Shown: one piece after another, positions 3,732 to 62,653 of the stretch
Position numbering within the stretch: position 1 is the first letter of the stretch
How the letters are laid out: each line of letters begins with the position of its first letter
Sequence record: PZ445450.1
Source: a phage
Reading direction: 5' to 3' (one strand)
DNA length: 64,000 nucleotides
Position numbers and translations under genes: made by a program
Notes under the pieces: generated by a model
Told to the model about the DNA's origin: nothing
The model's input: the letters and a program-made list of their open reading frames with translations, nothing else
The model's database searches: none

Positions 3732-4004
3732 ATGACCAAACAATATCAACGAATTAAAGCCAAGGTTAAGCCAGACTATCTGGAGAAGGACTCTGCTTTT
3801 CGGGACTGCACAGCTGACAAAGTTTACACAGGGGCCGTCCTGTTGAACGATGAACTTGAAGTAGATATTCTGGGTAAAGAGGCCACTATTAAGGACGACC
3901 AAGGCGATTATGTTTGCTGCACCACACGTGAGCTAGAAATCTTAGAATACTTCGGTGAAATCTTCACCTCTCTTGATGATTACTTAGATGATGAGGAAGC
4001 GTGA
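3732..4004 (+). CDS. hypothetical protein, paralogue of 3414..3668
   Basis: aaagggga RBS before internal ATG; the longer track ORF start lies inside the promoter. Confidence 0.55.
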   Translation: MTKQYQRIKAKVKPDYLEKDSAFRDCTADKVYTGAVLLNDELEVDILGKEATIKDDQGDYVCCTTRELEILEYFGEIFTSLDDYLDDEEA

Positions 4005-4393
4005 TGAAAAATATTTGGGATATCGATATCTTTGAAGCCTCTAAGCTTGATGGTGCTGATGGAGTGATTATGGTGTCTGATGGCAAGGCAACACTAACTT
4101 CCGGAGATATCATCTATGCCTTGGACGAGCTGGCGCTTCTGAAATCTACCGGTAACACTTTAGAGGAGCGTCTTCAAGGCTTCGCCTTCAAAGAAGGCAC
4201 AAATACCGCCATGATGTGCACCACACGGACAGTTCAAGTTGGTAACGGTGTCTATATGATCATTGCTGTGTGTCCTAAATTCAGCAACGTCAACAAAGAT
4301 GATGCTGACGCTGTCAACGATGTGGTTGTTCTCTTCGTGGGTGACGCTATGGCAGATCTGATGAATGCAGGAGAAGCAGCAAATGAAGACTGA
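4001..4393 (+). CDS. hypothetical protein
   Basis: ATGA overlap with upstream stop; 130-aa ORF. Confidence 0.5.
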   Translation: MMKNIWDIDIFEASKLDGADGVIMVSDGKATLTSGDIIYALDELALLKSTGNTLEERLQGFAFKEGTNTAMMCTTRTVQVGNGVYMIIAVCPKFSNVNKDDADAVNDVVVLFVGDAMADLMNAGEAANED

Positions 4394-4685
4394 AAACATC
4401 ACCCCCGCAGGGTTCTTAAAAGTATACCGTGAACTGCTATATACTACAGAGGACAGTGTTCTAGAGTATCCAGAATATCTTTTGCTGTATAAGTATCTGC
4501 AGGAGGCTGGTGAAAATCTGCCAGTTAGTGCAGAAGGTGGTCCGAACTGGATATACAGCGCATGGAGAAAGGTTGACATTCTCCCCGACCCAGGTAAAGA
4601 TATGGTAGTTTGGCAGCTTATTAACAACATCGGGATTCCAATCTTTGATGAAGCTGTTAAAATCTATTTTGAACTTGACGATTAA
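4383..4685 (+). CDS. hypothetical protein
   Basis: caggagaag RBS lies between first and second ATG, so the second ATG is taken as start. Confidence 0.5.
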   Translation: MKTENITPAGFLKVYRELLYTTEDSVLEYPEYLLLYKYLQEAGENLPVSAEGGPNWIYSAWRKVDILPDPGKDMVVWQLINNIGIPIFDEAVKIYFELDD

Positions 4686-4702
4686 TATCAGGAGACCTTA
4701 AG

Positions 4703-4948
4703 ATGACTGAAGTAGTTGCTCGCGCAGGACAGAAAGTACGTTGTGTTGAAGTAGGTTTTGGTGGCAAAGGGTGTCAAAACTTGACTCAAGGTAAGGAATA
4801 CGCTGTTATTTCTGGTGGTGGCGACGAAAGTATTGTGTTCGAGGGCCACATCCTGGATGCTGAAAACTTTGAAATCTTTGACGACGATGGGGATCCGATC
4901 ACCTGCCTGCTGGACGGGAATTGGGGAACTTTCGAAGTGATTGGCTAA
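4703..4948 (+). CDS. hypothetical protein
   Basis: caggagacc RBS; Gly-rich acidic 81-aa ORF. Confidence 0.5.
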   Translation: MTEVVARAGQKVRCVEVGFGGKGCQNLTQGKEYAVISGGGDESIVFEGHILDAENFEIFDDDGDPITCLLDGNWGTFEVIG

Positions 4949-5031
4949 CAAATACCTATTGTAATTTACAGAAGGAGATGCTAAAATAGTGTCTCCTTCT
5001 ATGTTGTTCAAATAAAATCGGAGATTCCATA

Positions 5032-5397
5032 ATGGAACAAATGAACGATCAAGCGTCGGTTGCGATGAACGAGCAAGAACAACCTCAAGAATTTTTCTTA
5101 GGGTTAAGTAAAGATCAAGTGTCTCTTTTGCTAGTGCTTTCTTCTTTCATGGGAAGACTTCAGGAGCTCACACAACAACCGGAGGCTGAACAATTATTTC
5201 AGGCTCTGCGTGAAGAAGAAAAATATCGTCGTTTGGACTATGCCTTAGGTTGGGTAGCTCAACAACGAGATATGCTGATGGCCCTCTCTGGGACCACAAG
5301 TTTTGCAATGGGCCTGTTGGCTCAAGTTCAGGACAAATTAATTCAAGCAGGGTTTGCACACACGGCAAACACTAACGAAGAACAAGGAGACAAATAA
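5032..5397 (+). CDS. hypothetical Gln/Glu-rich protein
   Basis: RBS ggaga; 121-aa ORF. Confidence 0.5.
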   Translation: MEQMNDQASVAMNEQEQPQEFFLGLSKDQVSLLLVLSSFMGRLQELTQQPEAEQLFQALREEEKYRRLDYALGWVAQQRDMLMALSGTTSFAMGLLAQVQDKLIQAGFAHTANTNEEQGDK

Positions 5398-19183: not shown

Positions 19184-19399
19184 ATGATCACGAATAAAAC
19201 AGGTAAAACAGAATTTTTACGCGGCTTGCAGATCGGCAAGCCTGAGATCTGGTATTGCACTAAAACACCACGTGACGAAATGAAAGACTTCACCGCCACG
19301 CTACAACGGGTAAAGATATCCATCACACAGAAAAAGGCCTTGATAGTGGTGGAAGGTGAGATCCCCCAAGCCGTTGTTATAGTTGAGCGTACAGCATAG
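19184..19399 (+). CDS. hypothetical protein
   Basis: aaggtg RBS before second ATG. Confidence 0.45.
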   Translation: MITNKTGKTEFLRGLQIGKPEIWYCTKTPRDEMKDFTATLQRVKISITQKKALIVVEGEIPQAVVIVERTA

Positions 19400-19918: not shown

Positions 19919-20110
19919 ATGACAGCAGAAGAAGTTAAAAAAGTACTGGCAGTACTACGTTACCATAATCATTGCAAGGTGAAGAATGATCCTGATTATC
20001 TCGATTCATCCCTTGAAGAGGATACACTGCAAGCCATAAGCAACATGCAAGAATTGCTTAAGCGTATGACAGAGAAAAACCGACCGGACTATATAGGCGA
20101 AAAAATATAA
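19919..20110 (+). CDS. hypothetical protein
   Basis: aggtgg RBS; 63-aa ORF. Confidence 0.45.
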   Translation: MTAEEVKKVLAVLRYHNHCKVKNDPDYLDSSLEEDTLQAISNMQELLKRMTEKNRPDYIGEKI

Positions 20111-20126
20111 TCTTTATAAACCATAA

Positions 20127-20156
20127 AACAGGGCTTGTAATGGTCCTGTTTTTTGT
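20127..20156 (+). terminator. rho-independent terminator
   Basis: aacagggc ... gtcctgtt stem followed by ttttttg. Confidence 0.55.
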
Positions 20157-20170
20157 TATACTTATTTCAC

Positions 20171-20217
20171 GGCAGGCACCTGGCGACGGGGGGAGACAAT
20201 CACCGGGGGTGCCTGTC
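20171..20217. repeat. GC-rich element, inverted copy of the element at 10941..10980
   Basis: Reverse complement reads ccccggtgattgtctcccccc...ggtgcctgcc, matching 10941-10980 and, partly, 10806-10846. Confidence 0.7.
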
Positions 20218-20239: not shown

Positions 20240-20268
20240 TTGACACCTGCCAGGCGGTGGGGTAACAT
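20240..20268 (+). promoter_or_regulatory. sigma70-like promoter (TTGACA-N17-TAACAT)
   Basis: -35 20240-20245, -10 20263-20268. Confidence 0.5.
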
Positions 20269-20322
20269 TTATCTTGAAGGGGCAAAAGTGCTCACACAAC
20301 AACCAGAAGAGAGGAAAACGCC

Positions 20323-20595
20323 ATGTTAAGCTGGATTAACCAAGAAGTCGAATCACGTTTTAATACTATTTAGGATCTCATCGAAAAAGAGGACGGAACA
20401 TCAAGCCCTTATCTCAATAATCTTGAATTCCATTTCGTGGAAGCGATGAACGCAGAACATGATCACGAAGGTGGTGCGGACGAGTTCGCTAAAGGGTATG
20501 GCTTCAACAATGCCAACGAAATGATCGAGGCGGTTGTACTCCAGGCTGAGGAAGATTATCAATTAAAAACGCTTGAATTCTGCCGCCGTAAGTAA
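20323..20595 (+). pseudogene. cassette gene interrupted by an in-frame amber (TAG) codon at 20371-20373
   Basis: Promoter, CA-rich leader and agaagagaggaaaacgcc RBS precede ATG 20323; codon 17 is TAG, after which the same frame stays open for 73 more codons to TAA at 20593-20595. Confidence 0.45.
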
Positions 20596-20657
20596 TAAGA
20601 TAATGACACGGGCCAAAAGGCCCACTAATCAGAACCGCACAAAAAGAGAGAAAGAAA

Positions 20658-20876
20658 ATGGCAACCCGTAAAATTAAAGTTGTTTGCATTGAATCAACTG
20701 GTAGCGCTTTTGTAGTTGGTCAGAAATATAATGCGGTTTTAATGGGTACGGATTGGAAGGTTAAAGGCCTTGATGGTTACGAATACGGCACTACTCGGGG
20801 ATTGCGTGGTCGAATCGGATACGTGAGTTTTGACAACAAAGAAAAATTTGTTTTCGATATTGTTGTGAGTAAATAG
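20658..20876 (+). CDS. hypothetical protein
   Basis: 5' hairpin gggcc-aaaa-ggccc, leader cacaaaaagagagaaagaaa then ATG. Confidence 0.5.
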   Translation: MATRKIKVVCIESTGSAFVVGQKYNAVLMGTDWKVKGLDGYEYGTTRGLRGRIGYVSFDNKEKFVFDIVVSK

Positions 20877-20932
20877 CAATTCATGCTATATTATCAACTA
20901 ATCAAAACGAACCGCATAAAGAGGAAAACATC

Positions 20933-21760: not shown

Positions 21761-21780
21761 TTTCTTAACTGAATTATCAA

Positions 21781-21806
21781 GGGGCTTAAAGGCCCCTTTC
21801 TTTTTG
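21781..21806 (+). terminator. rho-independent terminator
   Basis: ggggc-ttaaag-gcccc followed by tttctttttg. Confidence 0.7.
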
Positions 21807-22421
21807 TCTGCTCTTCTCCTACCATAAACGGCCCTACCTGGCAAGTGGAATAATTGACTAGCCATCAATCCCACATACTGTACAAATATACATGGAAAAT
21901 AACTATTGCATAATCTTTCATTGTGCGGTAGCAGGGCCATTTTTACCCGTTTTCTCTCCCAAAAGTGCACGTAATGCCGCTATTGCACAAATTTTAACCT
22001 GATGCACATATCCAATATCTTGTCAACAACTAAAAATCTTTATAAGTCATACACTTATACAGCATCGAAAGCGTGTTCTACGTGAAAAATCGAGTATAAC
22101 TATAGCCGCCAGATCTCAGAATTCACGTACGCACGCCATTCTATAGCCTGCAAAGTATTTATTCCAACCACAGAATAACGGAATAGTCAATACCTGCATA
22201 AAATAATTATTCGTGTAAACTGCATAACATAAATCAGCTCAGGTGTCAACATTTTTCGTAAACAGTCCGAAATTATCACGATGAGTTATCATAAACAGAG
22301 AAATCTTTAGTCGTCTAATGTTTACTGTACATTACTATACTGACTGGAATCATTAGATGACTAAGAAAAAGATAAGAAATAATTAATAATGTAATTGTTT
22401 TATCTGTAACAATAAGGCAAC

Positions 22422-22700
22422 CATGCAAACGAATGTCATGGCGCGACGGAGTCGCGACATAATATAAAAGCAGTAACCATCACCCCCGTGATAGTTTGTC
22501 TGCAATCTATTATTCAGATCATAGTTGCCTTGTATTTAGTTAATCATGACATAACAAGCAAGGCAACTATAGCTCTGATAATAGTTGCCCTGCTTTTATA
22601 TTATGTCATAGATTGTTAGCTTGTTAACTGTCAGCCTGTTGGCTGTTAGCTTGTCAATTATTAAATTGCTAATCTTTATCATGCAAACGAATGTCATGGC
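22422..22700. repeat. Composite repeat locus: 21-bp direct repeats flanking nested inverted repeats
   Basis: catgcaaacgaatgtcatggc at 22422-22442 and 22680-22700; 18-bp inverted repeat gacataatataaaagcag (22456-22473) / ctgcttttatattatgtc (22580-22597); inner palindromes cgcgac/gtcgcg and atagttgccttg/caaggcaactat. Confidence 0.8.
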
Positions 22701-22711
22701 TTATCATCTCT

Positions 22712-22767
22712 GTGTAAACAGTTTGGGCGTAAACTATTCAGGCGTAAACAGTCTATGCGTAAACAGT
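22712..22767. repeat. Four tandem iterons with 15-bp period (G[CT]GTAAAC[AT][AG]T)
   Basis: gtgtaaacagt, gcgtaaactat, gcgtaaacagt, gcgtaaacagt at 15-bp spacing; tgttagcttgt/tgtcagcctgt repeats sit just upstream and tgtgtc repeats downstream. Confidence 0.8.
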
Positions 22768-23141
22768 GAGATATGGAATAGTAACAGCCGTTATTGTGTC
22801 ATATTGTGTGACATTGTGTCCGGTGTCTGGTGTCCAGTGTGTCAGACAAGTTTTTCTCCTCTTTGTCAAGTGCTGCATGAAAAATTTACAAACTGGTATG
22901 GTAGCATTTTTGCGGCCCTGTTTACATTCAGTTGTGTATGTATAACCCTTGTTGTGTGGGCGTTTAGACGTCTAGACGGTTGGAAGTCTGCAGGTCAATA
23001 TCTAATCTATCGGCTGCTAACTATATCCCACACAAATAGTAAGAAATATAATTGTTATGTGCGTAAACAGTAACTCATGTTATCAATCCCTGTATGTATC
23101 GCCAGTGGTGCGCATAATGGGTATTATGTTAAATTGCCCGT

Positions 23142-23178
23142 AATGATAATGGTTCTCACAATGATAGGTATTCTCATT
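23142..23178. promoter_or_regulatory. Fur-box-like palindromic motifs
   Basis: aatgataatggttctcacaatgataggtattctcatt; same motif family as 10773 and 10903. Confidence 0.35.
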
Positions 23179-23420
23179 CATCCACACAAAATAGGTTGCA
23201 AATGTTGTGCCACTGTGTGAACGGCCTGGCCTATTAATTTCCCTCACTGCCTCGATATTTGAGAATTGTTATAAGAATGAGAAGTATTCCCATTTCGTCC
23301 GCCTGGCAGCACTCCTGTAGTCCTACAAGGACTCTAGCTGAAAGCTAGACCCTTCGGGCCTCCCTGCAGGTCAGGTCAAAATCGTGGTAGAATTGGGCTT
23401 ATTCAGATATTTCTGGCCGA

Positions 23421-23961
23421 CTCTTCAGGTCTGTGTGGGAAAAGCCAACCTCTCCGGCGGGGCAGGGGGAGGTCAATTAAAAAATTTACGTGGTGTATGA
23501 AGCGCTCTTCAGGTAAGGCAGGTATTATGGGATGAAACCCTCTTCAGGCAATGATATTTGTGGGTGTGATATTTGCTGGAAAGCCAGATATGACGGGACT
23601 CCCGGCGGGGATGGGGCAGTACAGACAGGGAAAATATGGGGATGTAGTTGGGTAAATTGATCAGACAGGTAGAGTATGGAATATGTTACAAGTATGTTAA
23701 ATATGGAGGGTGAATATCTGTAGGATTTGTGTGTAAAATCAAAGACTTAAGCGGTGTTGTGGTATTTTCTATAAATAATTCAAGTTTAATAGGTAATATT
23801 TGTCTCTATCCACTCTGTGTGGTAAACAGATTCAGATGATATTGGTTTGCAAGTGTATACATAATATACAAATTAAAGATACAAGAAACCCCCCTCCCCC
23901 TTCGGCTACCATTCACCTTTTCCTCTGACTGGTACTTAAACACTTATTCAGACTCTTCAGG
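23421..23961. repeat. Dispersed direct repeats of CTCTTCAGG with degenerate ~110-bp units
   Basis: CTCTTCAGG at 23421, 23505, 23540 and 23953; ctccggcggggcaggggg and ctcccggcggggatgggg recur; no supported ORF. Confidence 0.7.
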
Positions 23962-24311
23962 TTATCACCCATATATCATATGGCAGTGACTGGTGTCCTC
24001 CGGCCCCTCTTTCGTCACCCGTCCGCTTCGCCATGCTAATGCCATAGCCAAATGTTCGGTTGTTCACCCTGTTCACTCAGGTGTATCTCCATACCCCTTC
24101 AAACCGAAGAGAACAGAAAACCCGAATTACTCGGTAAAAGAAAAGAGAAGAACTTAATTTTATCATGATAGGCAAGAATGTCAAGGCATGACTGCTCACT
24201 AAACAAGCAAACAGTCATGTGTGGAAGGTAAGTGATTGTGGTGGTAGGAAATTTAGTTGAAAGATGTGTTATAGGTGCTCCCAGCACTTTAGCCGGGTAG
24301 CTAATTGTGTG

Positions 24312-24527
24312 TCAGTCCAGTGGTTCATCACCTACTTCACTGAAATCAATGTTCATGGTCTCCTCCCAACCATCAATCTCAGCACCAGAGTAGAGATCTT
24401 TAGGACTTACTCCCAAAGCCTCAGCAACAGAGTCTATATTTAACACCTCTGGCAGGTATGATTCATCGAATTCAAGGTAAATCAGGCCACGAGTGTTGTC
24501 AGCTCCACCAAATATTTCTATCTTCAT
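24312..24527 (-). CDS. hypothetical acidic protein
   Basis: cagaggagat RBS before internal ATG of track ORF 24312..24593; last gene of minus-strand block. Confidence 0.5.
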   Translation of the reverse strand: MKIEIFGGADNTRGLIYLEFDESYLPEVLNIDSVAEALGVSPKDLYSGAEIDGWEETMNIDFSEVGDEPLD

Positions 24528-24647
24528 GAAATCTCCTCTGGAAATGAGAATGTGAACAGGGTTTATATGTTCCAATGCACTGGAATTATGCACGTTTGCC
24601 TCTTCAGGCCATGCTTTAGCATGAGGAACCTGTGTGGGCTCGGTGCT

Positions 24648-24860
24648 TCATAGTCTACCACCTCTGAACTCTTCGTGCTCAGGCATAATAGAGAACCAGA
24701 TATCTACGATGTCTTCCCACGTTAGGTCATCAGCCTCAGGATCTACCTGGAGCGAAGATGGAGAATCTTCAGAATTGAAGTTTTCCTCTTGCACTGGCTC
24801 AGTCAAGGGACATATAGTCACTCCTTTGGATGTCTCTTCAGACGCATGTGTGGTAGTCAT
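24648..24860 (-). CDS. hypothetical acidic protein
   Basis: 70-aa ORF; start overlaps stop of upstream small ORF. Confidence 0.45.
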   Translation of the reverse strand: MTTTHASEETSKGVTICPLTEPVQEENFNSEDSPSSLQVDPEADDLTWEDIVDIWFSIMPEHEEFRGGRL

Positions 24861-26213: not shown

Positions 26214-26241
26214 AGTAGGAGTCTCCTTATGTTGTTTTAAA

Positions 26242-26493
26242 TTAACGTTCTACAAAAATACCATTCAGTTCAATAACCAGGAATTTCTGGTCTTCACTAT
26301 CGTCTCGTGCCAGTACCTCACAGACGTATCGGTCATCCCCATCATCATCGCAGTCAAATACAAGACTGAGGACTTTATCATGGTAAACCTTCGCCACTAC
26401 CGCCTCGTAAGTATTGCCGATTGTGAATCCAAGATAATCTCCGATGCATTTGACAACAACATGGTCTCCAGCATTTAAGTCAATCTTTGTCAT
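26242..26493 (-). CDS. hypothetical protein
   Basis: aaggagcgcag RBS before internal ATG of track ORF 26242..26559. Confidence 0.5.
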   Translation of the reverse strand: MTKIDLNAGDHVVVKCIGDYLGFTIGNTYEAVVAKVYHDKVLSLVFDCDDDGDDRYVCEVLARDDSEDQKFLVIELNGIFVER

Positions 26494-26648
26494 TACTGCG
26501 CTCCTTGGGTAATAATACTGTATGTAAAACTTTAACCAGAGATGTGAATAACGCCCCAAAACACACCGATAGCACTAAAACAGACAAGGCCATCATTAAA
26601 GCTTCAGTAAAATCAGTCACTCCTCACCTCTTGTTAGTCACTATACTG

Positions 26649-26912
26649 TCATTTATCCTTGCCGTCAAGAACTTTTTTAAATCTTTCAGGGATATCTCCT
26701 GTTCTTAGATAGTTCATGACCTCGCAAGGTTCCCACTTGAATTTCTTACAGAGCAGGACGGCTGAGATTGTTTCATTGCGAAAAGAAAGGATATTAATAT
26801 CCCACTCTGAGAACCCCAACTTCCGAAGGGTAGCTATAGAAATCCTCACCGCAACCCAGCAGCAAAAACATGCAACAAACGCCACTGCTACAACCCACAT
26901 CAGGATGTTCAT
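26649..26912 (-). CDS. hypothetical membrane protein
   Basis: N-terminal helix ILMWVVAVAFVACFCCWVAV. Confidence 0.45.
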   Translation of the reverse strand: MNILMWVVAVAFVACFCCWVAVRISIATLRKLGFSEWDINILSFRNETISAVLLCKKFKWEPCEVMNYLRTGDIPERFKKVLDGKDK

Positions 26913-27001
26913 ACAAGCACCTTACTGAAATACAAGACACAGTGTTAAGGTTACTGACCAGCAAATAATTAACAGAACTGTTGCAACCTTGGCAAGATTT
27001 A

Positions 27002-27289
27002 TCATAGTGCCTCTAAGATTTCATATCCATCTGGTCGGAATACAAGCCACTCCGTGGCTCCGTTTGGTCGATACGCTTTATACAGAACAACCTGATCTCG
27101 GCACATGCACATAGCTACATAGTTTTCATCCACACCTGCAGCCTGCATTGCAGCTTCTTCTCCGGCAACTGCTTTGCTTACAACCTCCTTGGTAGGCAGG
27201 TGTGCGATCAGTTCGTCACCATCATTAACTCCAAAATGGCTGAGCTCCCCATTGGTATCTTTAATCTTAATCTTAACCAGATCTTTCAT
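27002..27289 (-). CDS. small acidic protein, possible member of the MK(I/V)K...EVVEE family
   Basis: Starts MKDLVKIKIK; acidic; contiguous with family members. Confidence 0.45.
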   Translation of the reverse strand: MKDLVKIKIKDTNGELSHFGVNDGDELIAHLPTKEVVSKAVAGEEAAMQAAGVDENYVAMCMCRDQVVLYKAYRPNGATEWLVFRPDGYEILEAL

Positions 27290-27618
27290 TAGTCTTCCTC
27301 CAGGTTCAAAGGCCCTAAGATTTCATATGCCAGATTAGAAGTTACCAGAGGGTCTTCTGCATCTTTAGTATTATACCACCCGTGAATAACCAGAGTCCCA
27401 CTCTGTTTCATATCCAACTGGAACTGTTCTGCAGTTTCCTCCTCCATCTCTAAGATTTCCATAAGGTATTTGATGTTAGGAAGGTATGCAGCTGTTACAG
27501 TCCCCTCTACCAGACCTTCAGGCCAACCTACATCTGGATGACAAGTAGGAACCAGGTTGGTCAGCTTAATGGTGTACGCTTTTTCTGCACGAGCCTTCAG
27601 TAACGGGTCAATCTTCAT
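27289..27618 (-). CDS. hypothetical acidic protein
   Basis: 109-aa ORF; starts 1 nt after the upstream stop. Confidence 0.5.
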   Translation of the reverse strand: MKIDPLLKARAEKAYTIKLTNLVPTCHPDVGWPEGLVEGTVTAAYLPNIKYLMEILEMEEETAEQFQLDMKQSGTLVIHGWYNTKDAEDPLVTSNLAYEILGPLNLEED

Positions 27619-30509: not shown

Positions 30510-30986
30510 TCAGTTTAGCTTTTCTTCAACAACCCCATAGCTTGGGACAGAGTCAAGAGCTTTCTGGTTTAAAAGTGGTGTAGCAGGATCTGCAATGACA
30601 TCCCAAGTCTCATACAGACCGCACTCATGATACCCCCAACGCTGCTCAATTGTCAAGCTGAGTGGCAAATCTTTACCGTCACAAACAACCTTCCATCTAC
30701 AAATGCTGGTATCTGGGCGTATCTGTGCACGGTATATCTGTACAAAATCCAATTTGAATTTGAGGTACTCGTCATACAATTTAAGCACAAAGCTCTCGAT
30801 TTGTGGAGACACTTTTGCAGCAAACTGTGCGTATTTGTACTTGCACTGGATGATCTTTCTGCGTTTTGCAGTTAAATTTTTTGCCGCCAGTTGTTCTTCA
30901 GTGTATCTCCACCTACGATCAACAAACGCAACAGGGTCTTTGTCCCCATAGAGGTCTTCCCAGTTAATCAGAAGCATACCTGTCAC
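30510..30986 (-). CDS. hypothetical protein
   Basis: 158-aa ORF. Confidence 0.5.
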   Translation of the reverse strand: MTGMLLINWEDLYGDKDPVAFVDRRWRYTEEQLAAKNLTAKRRKIIQCKYKYAQFAAKVSPQIESFVLKLYDEYLKFKLDFVQIYRAQIRPDTSICRWKVVCDGKDLPLSLTIEQRWGYHECGLYETWDVIADPATPLLNQKALDSVPSYGVVEEKLN

Positions 30987-31216
30987 TCCTCCACAACTTC
31001 AAGGCCTTTACCGCCTCGCTCTGGCAGATTACTTAAAGATAGGTAATACATATAATCAGGAGAGATCCTGCCAGACTCTGCACCTGCAGCTAGTAAATCC
31101 TTCCCTTTAACCAGGACAACATTCTCGTTTGCAGATAGCCGTTTTGCTTCCACAATTTTACCAACACAGTCAACCAAGGAAGGGTACCCTAAATCTGTAA
31201 GAAATTTAACTTTCAT
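30983..31216 (-). CDS. small acidic protein, family member
   Basis: MKVKFLTDLGYPSLVD ... GLEVVEE. Confidence 0.55.
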   Translation of the reverse strand: MKVKFLTDLGYPSLVDCVGKIVEAKRLSANENVVLVKGKDLLAAGAESGRISPDYMYYLSLSNLPERGGKGLEVVEE

Positions 31217-31255
31217 GCTACCTCCTGCTTCTACCGTCCCTGGTAAGATAAATTA

Positions 31256-31657
31256 TTACTGAACAGAGCGCGGGGCTGGGAAGGATAACTCTTCTAAAGA
31301 GAAGATTTCATTTCCTACCACCCAAGTTGCTGGATCATCTGGGTCAACAGGCTGGATAATCATTACCTCATCCGCCTCGCACACACGTTTCCCACCTATA
31401 GTAGCGGAGTCAGCCACTAGCATACGAGGCTCTTCAGAAATGCACAGGTAACCTCCTCGGCCCACTGTTCCTTCCACAGGATCCTGCCCTTTGACCACAA
31501 TGAATACCTTCTCTCCTGTGGCGATATTACTTTGCACACTAACAGTTTGACCAACTTTAGATGTACCGATCTTAGTGGCTTCAAACATTAAATCCCGAAT
31601 TACTGTTGCATAGTTGCCGGACACTTTCTTACCTTCTTTAGTAATCTCAATCTTCAT
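31256..31657 (-). CDS. hypothetical protein, possibly a distant family member
   Basis: Starts MKIEITKEG, same N-terminal pattern. Confidence 0.45.
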   Translation of the reverse strand: MKIEITKEGKKVSGNYATVIRDLMFEATKIGTSKVGQTVSVQSNIATGEKVFIVVKGQDPVEGTVGRGGYLCISEEPRMLVADSATIGGKRVCEADEVMIIQPVDPDDPATWVVGNEIFSLEELSFPAPRSVQ

Positions 31658-31929
31658 AATCTAGGCTCCTTAAATGAATCTATGTAATCAATTAAATCCC
31701 AAACATCGCGATGGGCTGTCAGAGGGTATACTTCTCCGAGAGGGATCATAGCAATAAGTCTATCAAAAACCCAGTCTGGACGCAACATTTTATGGTGATA
31801 TTCCCACTCACCTTCCACAGATTTTTTCTGAGTGATCAGGATCTCTGTGTAGTGTTTCGCCTGTCTTGAGTAGATTGAAAATGACTTGTACATAAATGAC
31901 CCCCTCTTGTTGAAAACAACAATACACAA
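31654..31929 (-). CDS. hypothetical protein
   Basis: 91-aa ORF; overlaps neighbour by 4 nt. Confidence 0.45.
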   Translation of the reverse strand: MCIVVFNKRGSFMYKSFSIYSRQAKHYTEILITQKKSVEGEWEYHHKMLRPDWVFDRLIAMIPLGEVYPLTAHRDVWDLIDYIDSFKEPRL

Positions 31930-32244
31930 CTACCAGGTTACTGTCAAGTAGGCAACCGTATTATTTTTCTCTGGGGAGATGCCAACAACATCTACCTGCA
32001 GACCTCCTGCCCTTAAATCTCCAACAATGTGCGGGAAGTAATCTGAGAGATGCGAGGGTAGATTTATCGAAAATCCGCACCCCAGAAAGCCTGCTAACGC
32101 TTTATTTTGTATCTCTCCTACAATCGCATCATAAATGGAGTTAAGCTCGTCAGGAAGCGTTACAGGACGTTTTAGCGCTAACTGGTGTAATTTGTCCTTA
32201 GCACTCATTTTCATTTCAGGTCTACCTCTGGGGGTGCCAACCAC
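31930..32244 (-). CDS. hypothetical protein
   Basis: 104-aa ORF. Confidence 0.45.
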   Translation of the reverse strand: MVGTPRGRPEMKMSAKDKLHQLALKRPVTLPDELNSIYDAIVGEIQNKALAGFLGCGFSINLPSHLSDYFPHIVGDLRAGGLQVDVVGISPEKNNTVAYLTVTW

Positions 32245-32744
32245 ATAAACGGCGGCAAGTCTAAACGGTTTTTCTTATCCCACACAAAATATGCATATGC
32301 TTGCCCGTCAGTTCTGCCGTTTGATTGAAATGATGGACGCTTAGATATTGTGATCACAGTAGTAGGTGCATTATCAAGCCACCATTCAAATCTGGCTTTG
32401 CTTTCCAGAAAATTAAGACGCAAAAGCATAATAACTACGTCAGCATCTTTCAACGCCTTGTCTACAAACTCACGAGCCAGGCTGTATGGTGGGTTGGTGA
32501 TAATACAGTCAACATGGTTGTATTCTGTATTCAGATAGTCAACACCTTCTTGGATTTCTCCCCATGCAGATCCTAACGGCATACGGGAGTAGAACACACC
32601 TGAGGCACTATTCCTGCAAGGCTCTAAGTAGGTCCAGTCTTCTGGGAACGGAATAAGGTCATACAGCCCTTCTGCACACCACTCCGGTGTCACATACTCA
32701 TCGTAGGCGTTACGTTGTTCATCAGGTTTTCGAGCACAAGTCAT
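32211..32744 (-). CDS. DNA methyltransferase (amino-methyltransferase, NPPY motif)
   Basis: VDCIITNPPYSLAREF catalytic motif; Dam-like size. Confidence 0.7.
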   Translation of the reverse strand: MTCARKPDEQRNAYDEYVTPEWCAEGLYDLIPFPEDWTYLEPCRNSASGVFYSRMPLGSAWGEIQEGVDYLNTEYNHVDCIITNPPYSLAREFVDKALKDADVVIMLLRLNFLESKARFEWWLDNAPTTVITISKRPSFQSNGRTDGQAYAYFVWDKKNRLDLPPFMWLAPPEVDLK

Positions 32745-32795
32745 GCAAATCTCCAGATCATAAAAGCCCTCCGAAGAGGGCTTTAGAATTAATGT

Positions 32796-33845
32796 TTAAG
32801 CTTCTTCGATAATTCCTGCACCCAGGATTTTTTCATTGAGCTCTTTTGCTGTTTTAATAATATTGTCCACCAGACGCTTGCGAGTCTTATCTTTTACCTT
32901 AACCTCTTCACCGCCGTTCAGGGTTGTCTTCAATTGGGACAGAATGTCTTGAAGTTCAACGACAGAGAATCGCTGCAGATCTTCTGAGGTAATCTCGCCT
33001 AAGGCAATCTTAACGGTCTCACCACTTTCCATCTGCAGGTTCAGGAACACAGTGTGAACATCACCTTTCGAACCACCCGCTTTTGCAGATTCAACAGCAT
33101 GAACTAGCTCATCTAAAGAGGTGCACTGGTGAATCTCCGGAAGACCTGCTTCACCTAGCACACCTTCTTCATCACCTTTTGCCAAAAGCTTTTTAGGTTT
33201 TTGTCCGTTCTGGATGCGTTGTATGTTGCCTTCATCCAGAATAATAGCTCCAGTACGTGCTGCCAGCTCTTCTCCGTCCAACCACACTTCGCCACCAGCT
33301 GTGATGGATGCGATCTCATCTTCTGTCAGCACTCCACCGTAGTATTTTTCAATCAGGCGTTCAAAACGTTTTTTCCAGTAGCTGACCTGAGTATTCATGT
33401 TCACACCGTTACCATAAGTGCCACCTTGATAGTAGTGGAACATAAATTCTGTGTCCGGAGCCACAGTGCGTTCTTTGCAACCCAGCCATAAGATTGTTCC
33501 CGCAGAGCAGCACATCCCTTCAGCATGTGCAACAACGCTTGCCTGAGACTCGCGGAATGCCTGTAGATAAGCCATTGCAATGTGCACGCAACCCCCAGGG
33601 CTATTGATGATCACCCGAATGCTTTCTTCCGGCTGAGCCATACGGATCGTCTGCAGACGAGACATATGATCCTGCAGGTCTTCCAAATCGTCGATATAAA
33701 GAACGTGGTCAACAACAGGTGTTGGGTAGCTGTATGTTTCCATGATACCGCCCGGCATACCAAACATTTTATTACTCATAGGTTCGAAACCGTTCTGTTT
33801 TTCTTTCATGCCGTGTACCATGGTGCTGCGAGGTGTTAAATTCAT
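32796..33845 (-). CDS. ClpP/S14-like serine peptidase with C-terminal extension
   Basis: INSPGGCVHIAMAYL and GMCCSAGTILWLG resemble the ClpP oxyanion and active-site Ser regions. Confidence 0.6.
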   Translation of the reverse strand: MNLTPRSTMVHGMKEKQNGFEPMSNKMFGMPGGIMETYSYPTPVVDHVLYIDDLEDLQDHMSRLQTIRMAQPEESIRVIINSPGGCVHIAMAYLQAFRESQASVVAHAEGMCCSAGTILWLGCKERTVAPDTEFMFHYYQGGTYGNGVNMNTQVSYWKKRFERLIEKYYGGVLTEDEIASITAGGEVWLDGEELAARTGAIILDEGNIQRIQNGQKPKKLLAKGDEEGVLGEAGLPEIHQCTSLDELVHAVESAKAGGSKGDVHTVFLNLQMESGETVKIALGEITSEDLQRFSVVELQDILSQLKTTLNGGEEVKVKDKTRKRLVDNIIKTAKELNEKILGAGIIEEA

Positions 33846-33905
33846 GAGAAATCCTTAATATTGGAAGTTGAAAGCTATTTATTTAAACCTGATTCACATT
33901 TACCT

Positions 33906-34340
33906 TTATTTAGCAATCACTATAGAATACTTACGATTGTCAGAAGCATCACAACTCAATGATTGCCAGTCTACCACATACCACGTATCATTGTCAACAA
34001 TTACTTTATCGCCTGTTCTGTAGCAAGTGCTGCTTTCAATAATGCGAGACTCGATAAAGAATCTGTGTCGGCGCTCACGTAGCAACGCTAAGTTGATTAT
34101 ATTACCACCGCTGTCCTTGGTCCACACATTCTTGGATCCTTTATTTGCCAAAATTGTCTCGCCGTTATAGACAAACAGGCAGTATATTTTATTCAGTTTC
34201 TCTTGTATTGTAGCCATACTGTCCTTCTCCTTGTTTTGTCCGATAATAATATCTAAAGCTTGCCTATTTGTCAACAACTGTTTTAGATATTTAAGGGTGG
34301 AATAACCACCCTTCTGTATTACTCGGAAACAGGGGTCCAA
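33906..34340 (-). CDS. hypothetical protein
   Basis: 144-aa ORF. Confidence 0.45.
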   Translation of the reverse strand: MDPCFRVIQKGGYSTLKYLKQLLTNRQALDIIIGQNKEKDSMATIQEKLNKIYCLFVYNGETILANKGSKNVWTKDSGGNIINLALLRERRHRFFIESRIIESSTCYRTGDKVIVDNDTWYVVDWQSLSCDASDNRKYSIVIAK

Positions 34341-35107
34341 ATATGATTTGCACGATCCTCGATAAGATTGAGTGCGATCTGACGACCCAACCCGGAACGA
34401 ACGACATCGTCTGGACTATCAAAGCTGATCATTCCAACCTCAGGATCTGGATGGCGAGTAAAGAAATCCGTCACCCATGCAAGGCCAGATTTGCCAGGGA
34501 TGTCACGTTGGCTATTATCACCCATAATTACAAGAGTGGCCTGATCAGAGATCCTTGTGATAATTGACAACATTTCTTCAGGGTTAGTTTGCTGTGCCTC
34601 GTCAATCAGAACAAAGCATCGCTCATCGAAACTACGACCACGAATGCTTTCAACTTCACAAATCTCGATACGACTGTTCTGACCGTCTCCCAGCATTGCG
34701 GCAAAAGCACCTTTGCCAACACGACGACAAATCGTGTCCATCATGCTTCGAAGATAGGGCCACAGTTTCTGCATTGCATTCCCTGGTTTAAATCCTGAAG
34801 TTTTTCCTGTCTGGACGTAAGGACGTGCAACAATAATCTTATCAATCTCGTTCTTACGCAGAAGATCACCTGCATATGCAGATGCCATGAATGTCTTACC
34901 GGATCCAAACACACCGTTTACAATAATAATCTTACGTGACCCTAGATAATCAAGATACTTTTGCTGCTTCTTATTCATTGGTCGGAGAGCTGGAGCGGTG
35001 TGCTCTCTTTCGTCAGCAAATTTCTCAGCAGCCTTACGCAGGCGATCAGATTTGCGAGCCTCTCTAGCTTCATCACGCATGCGTTTTGTTTCTTTAGCTC
35101 GACCCAT
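34319..35107 (-). CDS. phoH: PhoH-like ATPase
   Basis: Walker A GVFGSGKTFMA; PhoH-like length and layout. Confidence 0.75.
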   Translation of the reverse strand: MGRAKETKRMRDEAREARKSDRLRKAAEKFADEREHTAPALRPMNKKQQKYLDYLGSRKIIIVNGVFGSGKTFMASAYAGDLLRKNEIDKIIVARPYVQTGKTSGFKPGNAMQKLWPYLRSMMDTICRRVGKGAFAAMLGDGQNSRIEICEVESIRGRSFDERCFVLIDEAQQTNPEEMLSIITRISDQATLVIMGDNSQRDIPGKSGLAWVTDFFTRHPDPEVGMISFDSPDDVVRSGLGRQIALNLIEDRANHIWTPVSE

Positions 35108-35145
35108 GTTGGGACTCCTTTCAGATTGAGATGTGCCAAGTACTT

Positions 35146-35496
35146 TTACTGCAACAGTTTTTCAATAGCCGCTTCCATGCTGCTTGCAACAGCCTGAACT
35201 CGGATATTCATCTCTTCTTGGTGGATCAGCTCCTTAAGCTCTTTAATGGTAAATTCTTTAGAGAAACCTTCCACCATAATCTTGTGCAAGGCTTCTTGCG
35301 TGTCTACTTGCAAGAACTTTTCCAGTTTGTTGGCAGAGGCTTCTAAATCAGCCCGAATACGAGGGTCATCTGTGCGATTCAGCATTAGGCGTAAGCCATC
35401 AAGATTAGTAGAAATAGCATCTGCATGTTGAGTAACTAACCGTGGCAAAATGAGATCTACAAACTTATTAGCCAAATCGATACGTTCTTGTGTCAC
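35146..35496 (-). CDS. hypothetical protein (GTG start)
   Basis: 116-aa ORF; GTG start overlaps stop of upstream small ORF. Confidence 0.45.
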   Translation of the reverse strand: MTQERIDLANKFVDLILPRLVTQHADAISTNLDGLRLMLNRTDDPRIRADLEASANKLEKFLQVDTQEALHKIMVEGFSKEFTIKELKELIHQEEMNIRVQAVASSMEAAIEKLLQ

Positions 35497-35606
35497 TGTT
35501 GCACCCCCTCTTCATCTTCATGATGTTTCTTTTCACGCTTGTGTTTTTTCTTAAGCTCAAGCGCAATCTCTTTCTTGTACGCCTTCTTCAAGGCTTTTTT
35601 AGCCAT
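35493..35606 (-). CDS. small highly basic protein (37 aa)
   Basis: Strong RBS cagaggaggtg; MAKKALKKAYKKEIALELKKKHKREKKHH; not in ORF track. Confidence 0.4.
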   Translation of the reverse strand: MAKKALKKAYKKEIALELKKKHKREKKHHEDEEGVQQ

Positions 35607-35668
35607 TTGGCACCTCCTCTGCTTTCATTACGACAATTATAACCAACTTAACAAAGATTTGTCAACAA

Positions 35669-36142
35669 CTAGTCTACCTGAACCCAACCGCCTGATACTT
35701 TTTTAAACATTCTTTGGTTATCACTACCTCGGAACGGTTTCTTGGTTGGTAAATCTTTTACATACTTACCGTCAATGATGATATCAGCCAGTTTAAGAAC
35801 ATCACTAGAGATATGGTCAAATGTGAACCCAGTATATACAAGAATAGTTTTCTTGTCACCAAATTTTTCCTTAATTTTCTCCATCAGGCTAATAATATCT
35901 GGCTCATTATAGTATGCTAAGGGTTCTCCACCCAGCAGAGAGATACCGCACACAGACGGGTTATCTAAATCTGACAAGATTTTTTGCAAGTCTTCTTCAG
36001 TGAACTCCCTCCCCTTATCTTTTGACCAAAATGCCTGATTAAAGCAACCATGGCAAGCGTGTGGGCACCCAGATACCCACAAGGCAGTTCTAATACCTGG
36101 CCCTTCGGTGTAAGATATTTCTGTGTATCCGACAATGTTCAT
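35669..36142 (-). CDS. nrdG: anaerobic ribonucleotide reductase activating protein (radical SAM)
   Basis: CPHACHGCFN radical-SAM cysteine motif; directly downstream of nrdD. Confidence 0.85.
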   Translation of the reverse strand: MNIVGYTEISYTEGPGIRTALWVSGCPHACHGCFNQAFWSKDKGREFTEEDLQKILSDLDNPSVCGISLLGGEPLAYYNEPDIISLMEKIKEKFGDKKTILVYTGFTFDHISSDVLKLADIIIDGKYVKDLPTKKPFRGSDNQRMFKKVSGGWVQVD

Positions 36143-62554: not shown

Positions 62555-62653
62555 GCTAGGTAAGCCCTTTGGCAAGGGCGAGGATTTTTAATCCTGAAAA
62601 TAGACGAGGTAGTCGTTGAATACATAGGTGGTTCGATTCCATCACCTAGCACC
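62555..62653 (+). tRNA. aberrant tRNA-like gene (candidate Lys-UUU-like anticodon loop; ~30-nt insertion before T-arm)
   Basis: Acceptor gctaggt/acctagc, D-arm gccc-tttggcaa-gggc, T-arm ggtgg-ttcgatt-ccatc. Anticodon region aggatttttaatcct gives UUUUUAA loop only with a 4-bp stem; ~30 nt lie between it and the T-arm; 3' CC only. Confidence 0.45.

Follow-up and report, generated by a model that had tools for sequence, protein, structure and literature searches.

The closest described counterpart of the locus reported here is ORF 167 of coliphage rV5, whose product, gp167, is a protein of 90 aa, 10.5 kDa and pI 4.4 that is listed without a function and is encoded near the end of a transcription unit running through genes 238-164 (PMC3606486). 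Two further classes of described system bear on an amber codon that interrupts a conserved frame. Phages with a reassigned stop codon (TAG or TGA) carry many in-frame recoded stops together with a suppressor tRNA gene of their own, and the genes affected avoid ending on the recoded codon. The classical amber mutants of T4 and lambda are conditional lethals in essential genes that were selected on suppressor hosts. TGG to TAG is one of the two usual ways in which an amber codon arises; RF1 terminates translation at such a codon, and supD, supE and supF hosts can suppress it.

The locus in our window, by which we mean the whole 64,000-nucleotide stretch that was analysed, resembles each of these systems in part. 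It shares its position, promoter, leader and 90-codon frame with rV5 gp167 and with QDB73780.1 of phage ECP32, both of which have TGG at codon 17, whereas the window copy has TAG there and, as written, encodes 16 residues. An in-frame TAG within a conserved ORF looks locally just as it does in a stop-codon-reassigned phage; unlike those phages, the window holds a single such TAG, ends 8 of its 84 genes with this codon and encodes no tRNA(CUA). With the classical mutants the locus shares the kind of lesion, a TGG-to-TAG change by G:C-to-A:T transition, but here the change falls in a small accessory gene and bears no sign of deliberate selection. In our assessment the amber codon is probably an unprogrammed nonsense mutation that arose recently in a dispensable accessory gene, a true mutation rather than a consensus error. 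The lesion itself is ordinary and, judged from the sequence, the window copy is best regarded as a nonsense, pseudogene-like allele of phrog_7287, the family of rV5 gp167, which is already known and uncharacterised.

The phage, the gene and its expression signals

The window derives from an rV5-like coliphage (Vequintavirus). Its best megablast match is vB_EcoM-ECP32, with which it shares 99.5% identity across 801 nt; the figure is 98% for the 3.4 kb around the locus and about 95% when 45 kb of the window are aligned. Since the phage collection contains no identical record, the window represents a distinct isolate. An intact 273-nt CDS is annotated at exactly the same place in ECP32, rV5 and EmilHeitz; its product is ABI79232.1 in rV5 and QDB73780.1 in ECP32. 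With Trp17 restored, residues 2-86 of the window's protein match positions 2-86 of the 86-position phrog_7287 profile at an E value of 3.2e-46, and identity to the ECP32 protein is 98.9% over residues 1-90 with the stop included (89 of 90 positions). Besides the amber, the ORF differs from that of ECP32 by one synonymous base, and the flanking genes are the same as in the relatives. The window copy therefore has the profile similarity, the genomic position and the expression signals of a phrog_7287 member; what it lacks is the uninterrupted ORF of about 85-92 codons with an invariant tryptophan in helix 1.

The reading frame opens with ATG at 20323-20325 and runs into the amber TAG at 20371-20373, which is codon 17. 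Codons 1-16 (20323-20370, + strand; MLSWINQEVESRFNTI) correspond to the start of rV5 gp167 and would be the sole part translated in a non-suppressing host. Past the TAG the frame stays intact and open for 73 sense codons, 18-90 (20374-20592, +), whose protein sequence is identical to that of QDB73780.1, up to the natural tandem stop TAA TAA of the gp167 homologue (20593-20598, +). The first-pass annotation had described the same start, amber and 73 further codons, its end at 20595 taking in the first TAA. Because the 90-codon gene is conserved in relatives, the open frame 3' of the TAG is not a product of chance.

The promoter, CA-rich leader and ribosome-binding site that had been noted upstream of the ORF are likewise real. 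The predicted sigma-70-type promoter, TTGACA-17 nt-TAACAT (20240-20268, +), matches the consensus at 10 of 12 positions, occupies the same position as the annotated promoter P168 in rV5 DQ832317 and is nearly invariant across ECP32, rV5 and EmilHeitz. The leader (CACACAACAACCAGAAG; 20290-20322, +) is also conserved and nearly invariant in the relatives, and its Shine-Dalgarno element AGAGGA (20310-20315, +) lies 7 nt 5' of the ATG. Upstream, the cassette is bounded by the intrinsic terminator (20125-20152, +; 11-bp stem, 6-nt loop and T-run) of a preceding 63-aa gene (19919-20110). The GC hairpin GGGCC AAAA GGCCC that follows the gene (20610-20623, +) has no T-run and was not among the terminators predicted, and no further promoter-like site occurs before 20863-20892, so the gp167 homologue is probably co-transcribed with the next gene (72 aa, 20658-20876), which could suffer some Rho-dependent polarity.

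Several other features of the region and of the related records deserve description in their own right. Between the upstream terminator and the gene's promoter sits a GC-rich hairpin (20171-20217, +) whose imperfect stem, GGCAGGCACC...GGUGCCUGUC, comprises about 16 pairs and which folds at -24.6 kcal/mol (z -3.08). A weak promoter-like site (20135-20162) precedes it, a 29-aa CDS that looks spurious is annotated at the same site in EmilHeitz, and the hairpin may represent a small RNA, a regulatory element or a site of recombination. The 72-aa gene directly downstream of the gp167 homologue (20658-20876, +) is a variable cassette covered by 19 of 138 matching phage records; most matches end near 20653, just past the GGGCC-AAAA-GGCCC hairpin, and the next gene of those phages is an 87-aa one. 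Further along, from about 21770 to 24650, two opposite-strand gene blocks meet in an ORF-poor stretch of some 2.9 kb, where no ORF that starts with ATG reaches 60 aa and GC falls to 0.35 around 22000-22500. At the equivalent place rV5 has a 'non-coding' box, between genes 163 and 164 (PMC3606486), and ECP32 an unannotated gap. This is where the aligned window is most diverged from ECP32 (90.5% identity, 34 gap openings), and a search of it with Rfam returned no family at its gathering score.

At about 30540-30610 the window has no counterpart of 13 consecutive small CDSs of ECP32 (30909-34241), which marks an indel or mosaic junction in an accessory-gene region. In GenBank, 15-24 'Campylobacter phage' records (MG0656xx, host Campylobacter jejuni) match the rV5-like region at about 94-97% and look mislabelled or contaminated. 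ECP32 itself (MK883718) has adjacent CDS pairs that share a product name at 3810-5071, 26229-27427 and 35042-35766 (RNA ligase, PhoH-like and sigma-54 modulation factor). These pairs may be split genes, in which case gene disruption would be nothing unusual among the Vequintavirus genomes on deposit.

A single base change at an invariant tryptophan codon

Alignment of the window with ECP32, rV5 and EmilHeitz traces the stop (20371-20373, +) to a single G-to-A transition at 20372 that converts TGG (Trp17) to TAG, and DNA alignments also read TGG in one IMG/VR contig, one metagenome scaffold and phage NHEP1. We searched the phage collection by megablast with an 80-nt segment, once as it stands in the window and once in the ECP32 version, and compared the records that appear in both tables. 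Replacing the A with G gained exactly one matched base in 30 of these 30 records, with identity stepping from 98.8 to 100, from 97.5 to 98.8 or from 96.3 to 97.5%, and the identity bands of all 86 matching records shifted upward. The TAG allele was found in none of the phage records by this search, and exact-pattern scans of viral, metagenome and genome contigs yielded no second occurrence.

The protein alignments lead to the same residue. Trp17 is present in all 13 protein clusters (90% identity; about 250 members), every one of them full length, the homologues measuring 85-90 aa, and it is one of just 14 columns that stay invariant even when homologues of 34-36% identity are added. Comparison of relatives at this codon, which the first-pass annotation had proposed, therefore gave TGG or Trp in every relative examined. 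The prospect that it had raised of an unrelated short ORF ending at this TAG is contradicted, the relatives having instead a full-length conserved ORF without the stop.

Candidate second truncated alleles did not survive inspection. The 52-aa cluster P0014, which equals the window's GTG-started sub-ORF, was rejected: in the contig from which it comes, codon 17 is TGG and a scaffold gap, filled with Ns, covers the 5' end. In NHEP1 the frame is intact; its split annotation, like the 49-aa calls, arose because gene callers missed a GTG start codon.

Stop codons, tRNAs and the competing readings

The use of stop codons across the window places the amber in context. When ECP32 proteins were compared with the window by tblastn, three alignments among about 85 genes contained a stop. 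One falls at residue 4 of an ECP32 protein whose start was probably set too far upstream, another lies two residues before a C-terminus, and the TAG at codon 17 is the only true internal premature stop in this comparison. The 45-kb alignment of the window with ECP32 contains about 2,200 substitutions, and about 4.6% of random substitutions in the window's genes would create a stop; the single nonsense change therefore indicates purifying selection elsewhere, with the gp167 gene as the lone exception. The eight genes that TAG terminates in the ordinary way include both neighbours, which end at 19397-19399 and 20874-20876.

ARAGORN identified seven tRNA genes in the 64-kb window (Arg-TCT, Tyr-GTA, Ser-TGA, Thr-TGT, Met-CAT, Pro-TGG and one without a clear anticodon), none of them with a CUA anticodon, in agreement with the first-pass annotation, and the complete rV5 genome is reported to carry only the same six that have a clear anticodon here (Arg, Tyr, Thr, Met, Pro and Ser) and no suppressor (PMC3606486). 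A tRNA-like element of 99 nt (62555-62653, +) that is not among the six of rV5 lies inside the tRNA cluster. ARAGORN assigns it a four-base 'anticodon', atcc, the Rfam tRNA model scores it at 35.5 bits against a gathering score of 29, and its fold is a cloverleaf that bears an additional long arm (z -3.66); if the anticodon loop had the canonical 7 nt, the anticodon would be UUU. It is not an amber suppressor, because CTA occurs only in its acceptor stem. The RNA beginning at the TAG shows no unusual structure over 80 nt, 20371-20450 folding at -14.9 kcal/mol (z -0.25 against shuffles), and our literature search returned nothing relevant on amber mutation or suppression in rV5-like phages.

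These observations bear directly on how the codon is to be read. Programmed readthrough or recoding, by which the TAG would yield both a 16-aa peptide and the full-length protein or would be reassigned altogether, has in our view almost no likelihood. It draws only on the frame staying open for 73 codons after the TAG, whereas the stop is conserved in no homologue, where tryptophan is invariant, and no stimulatory structure or context follows it. An in-frame TAG interrupts one gene only and TAG is not avoided as a terminator, so that genome-wide recoding is rejected on stop-codon usage; together with the lack of a suppressor tRNA in the window and in rV5, this leaves programmed readthrough unsupported. 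Among the four options that the first-pass annotation had offered, the pair of point mutation and sequencing error thus stands while programmed readthrough falls away, and the short 16-aa peptide with an untranslated tail holds as the molecular outcome in a non-suppressing host. The amber mutation of a laboratory strain that it had also suggested is not borne out as a deliberately made mutant, since the gp167 gene is a small accessory gene rather than an essential one. Within the surviving pair, it is rather unlikely that the true base is G and that the A at 20372 is a base-calling or assembly artefact. The TAG is a singleton present in no other record, the rest of the ORF is perfectly intact and the change falls on an invariant residue, as an error would allow; however, the window is otherwise clean, with no other internal stop or frameshift in the roughly 85 genes set against ECP32, and the site, ATT TAG GAT, lies outside the homopolymers and repeats where errors concentrate. 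Isolated substitution errors are also rare in modern consensus assemblies. We infer from this that the base at 20372 is a real mutation.

Two further readings accept the amber as real and let part of the gene's function persist. Suppression by the host (glnV44/supE or supF), with less full-length protein, a substituted residue 17 and relaxed selection, strikes us as very unlikely. Many laboratory E. coli K-12 hosts are amber suppressors, at least one related phage record, that of Shigella phage CM1, lists DH5alpha as host, and the downstream frame is undamaged; but Gln or Tyr may not function in place of the invariant Trp17, and a suppressor is unneeded for survival if the gene is dispensable. 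Re-initiation would produce C-terminal fragments of 52 or 49 aa with part of the function kept, and this hypothetical route is given a comparably slim chance. The only candidate start codons, GTG at 20437 and ATG at 20446 (20437-20448, +), are both in frame and 64-73 nt after the stop, and in one homologue, P0015, the same 49 C-terminal residues follow an N-terminus of unrelated sequence, so this half may be separable. Neither codon is preceded by a convincing Shine-Dalgarno sequence (AATTCCATTTC, GTGGAAGCG), however, the N-terminal third holds the invariant residues W17, Y30, L31, N33, E35 and H37, and helices 1-2 belong to a single compact four-helix model. As an observation in its own right, P0015 (a Logan contig, 84 aa) is a natural chimera in which a C-terminal 49-residue segment 88% identical to the gp167 family follows an unrelated 35-residue N-terminus, which suggests that the C-terminal half of the family is a separable module.

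The gp167 family and the probable consequences of the amber codon

An AlphaFold2 model of the gp167 homologue, built with 13 homologues, reached a pLDDT of 86.8 and a pTM of 0.74 and comprises four helices (residues 7-24, 29-47, 51-58 and 64-89), with Trp17 located in helix 1. Foldseek returned no significant match to this model in the PDB or BFVD, all E values exceeding 0.5, and the weak matches were only MazG-like folds at a TM score of about 0.28. A profile search of PDB sequences with the family found nothing, and Pfam gave only a sub-threshold match to DUF2218.

The family is small, with 9 representatives at 50% clustering in an exhaustive HMMER search of 1.8 billion proteins; among these, the match to a 1,201-aa repeat protein looks like low-complexity helical resemblance. 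By tblastn the family occurs in 147 phage records, mostly of Vequintavirus, and its other carriers are some myoviruses of about 145 kb, at about 50% identity, and Salmonella, Citrobacter and Escherichia phages of about 45-50 kb, at 34-40% identity. Such a scatter is what one would expect of a mobile accessory gene, and it argues against essentiality. The gp167 gene appears dispensable, because it is small, has no annotated function, is not universal among related phages and is scattered over unrelated phage groups. In being small, strongly acidic and expressed early from a host-type promoter of its own, the protein also resembles host-takeover or anti-defence proteins in general profile.

On the preferred reading of a recent nonsense mutation, the G-to-A change at 20372 would have turned the invariant Trp17 codon TGG into amber TAG, and in a non-suppressing E. 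coli RF1 would terminate there and release the 16-residue peptide (MLSWINQEVESRFNTI). The remaining 219 nt of coding sequence would then form an untranslated tail and the gene would be functionally knocked out, a loss that the phage would tolerate if the gene is indeed a dispensable accessory one. The mutation would be recent, because the rest of the ORF is undamaged. Propagation on a supE/glnV44-like host would still allow some full-length protein, with Gln at position 17, and so leave the gene short of a complete null. It is also conceivable, at a probability we consider very low, that the knockout was itself selected, with gp167 sensed by a bacterial defence or harmful on a particular host and the amber serving as an escape mutation that let the phage grow on its isolation strain; the allele would then be a clue to what phrog_7287 does.

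The main consequence is for annotation, where the locus is best described as a disrupted (nonsense) copy of rV5 gp167/phrog_7287 rather than as an ORF of 16 or 52 aa; nor does it count as evidence of recoding. A real mutation would mean that on at least one host a Vequintavirus can dispense with this conserved early protein of 90 aa, which would provide a useful hint toward the function of the gp167 family.
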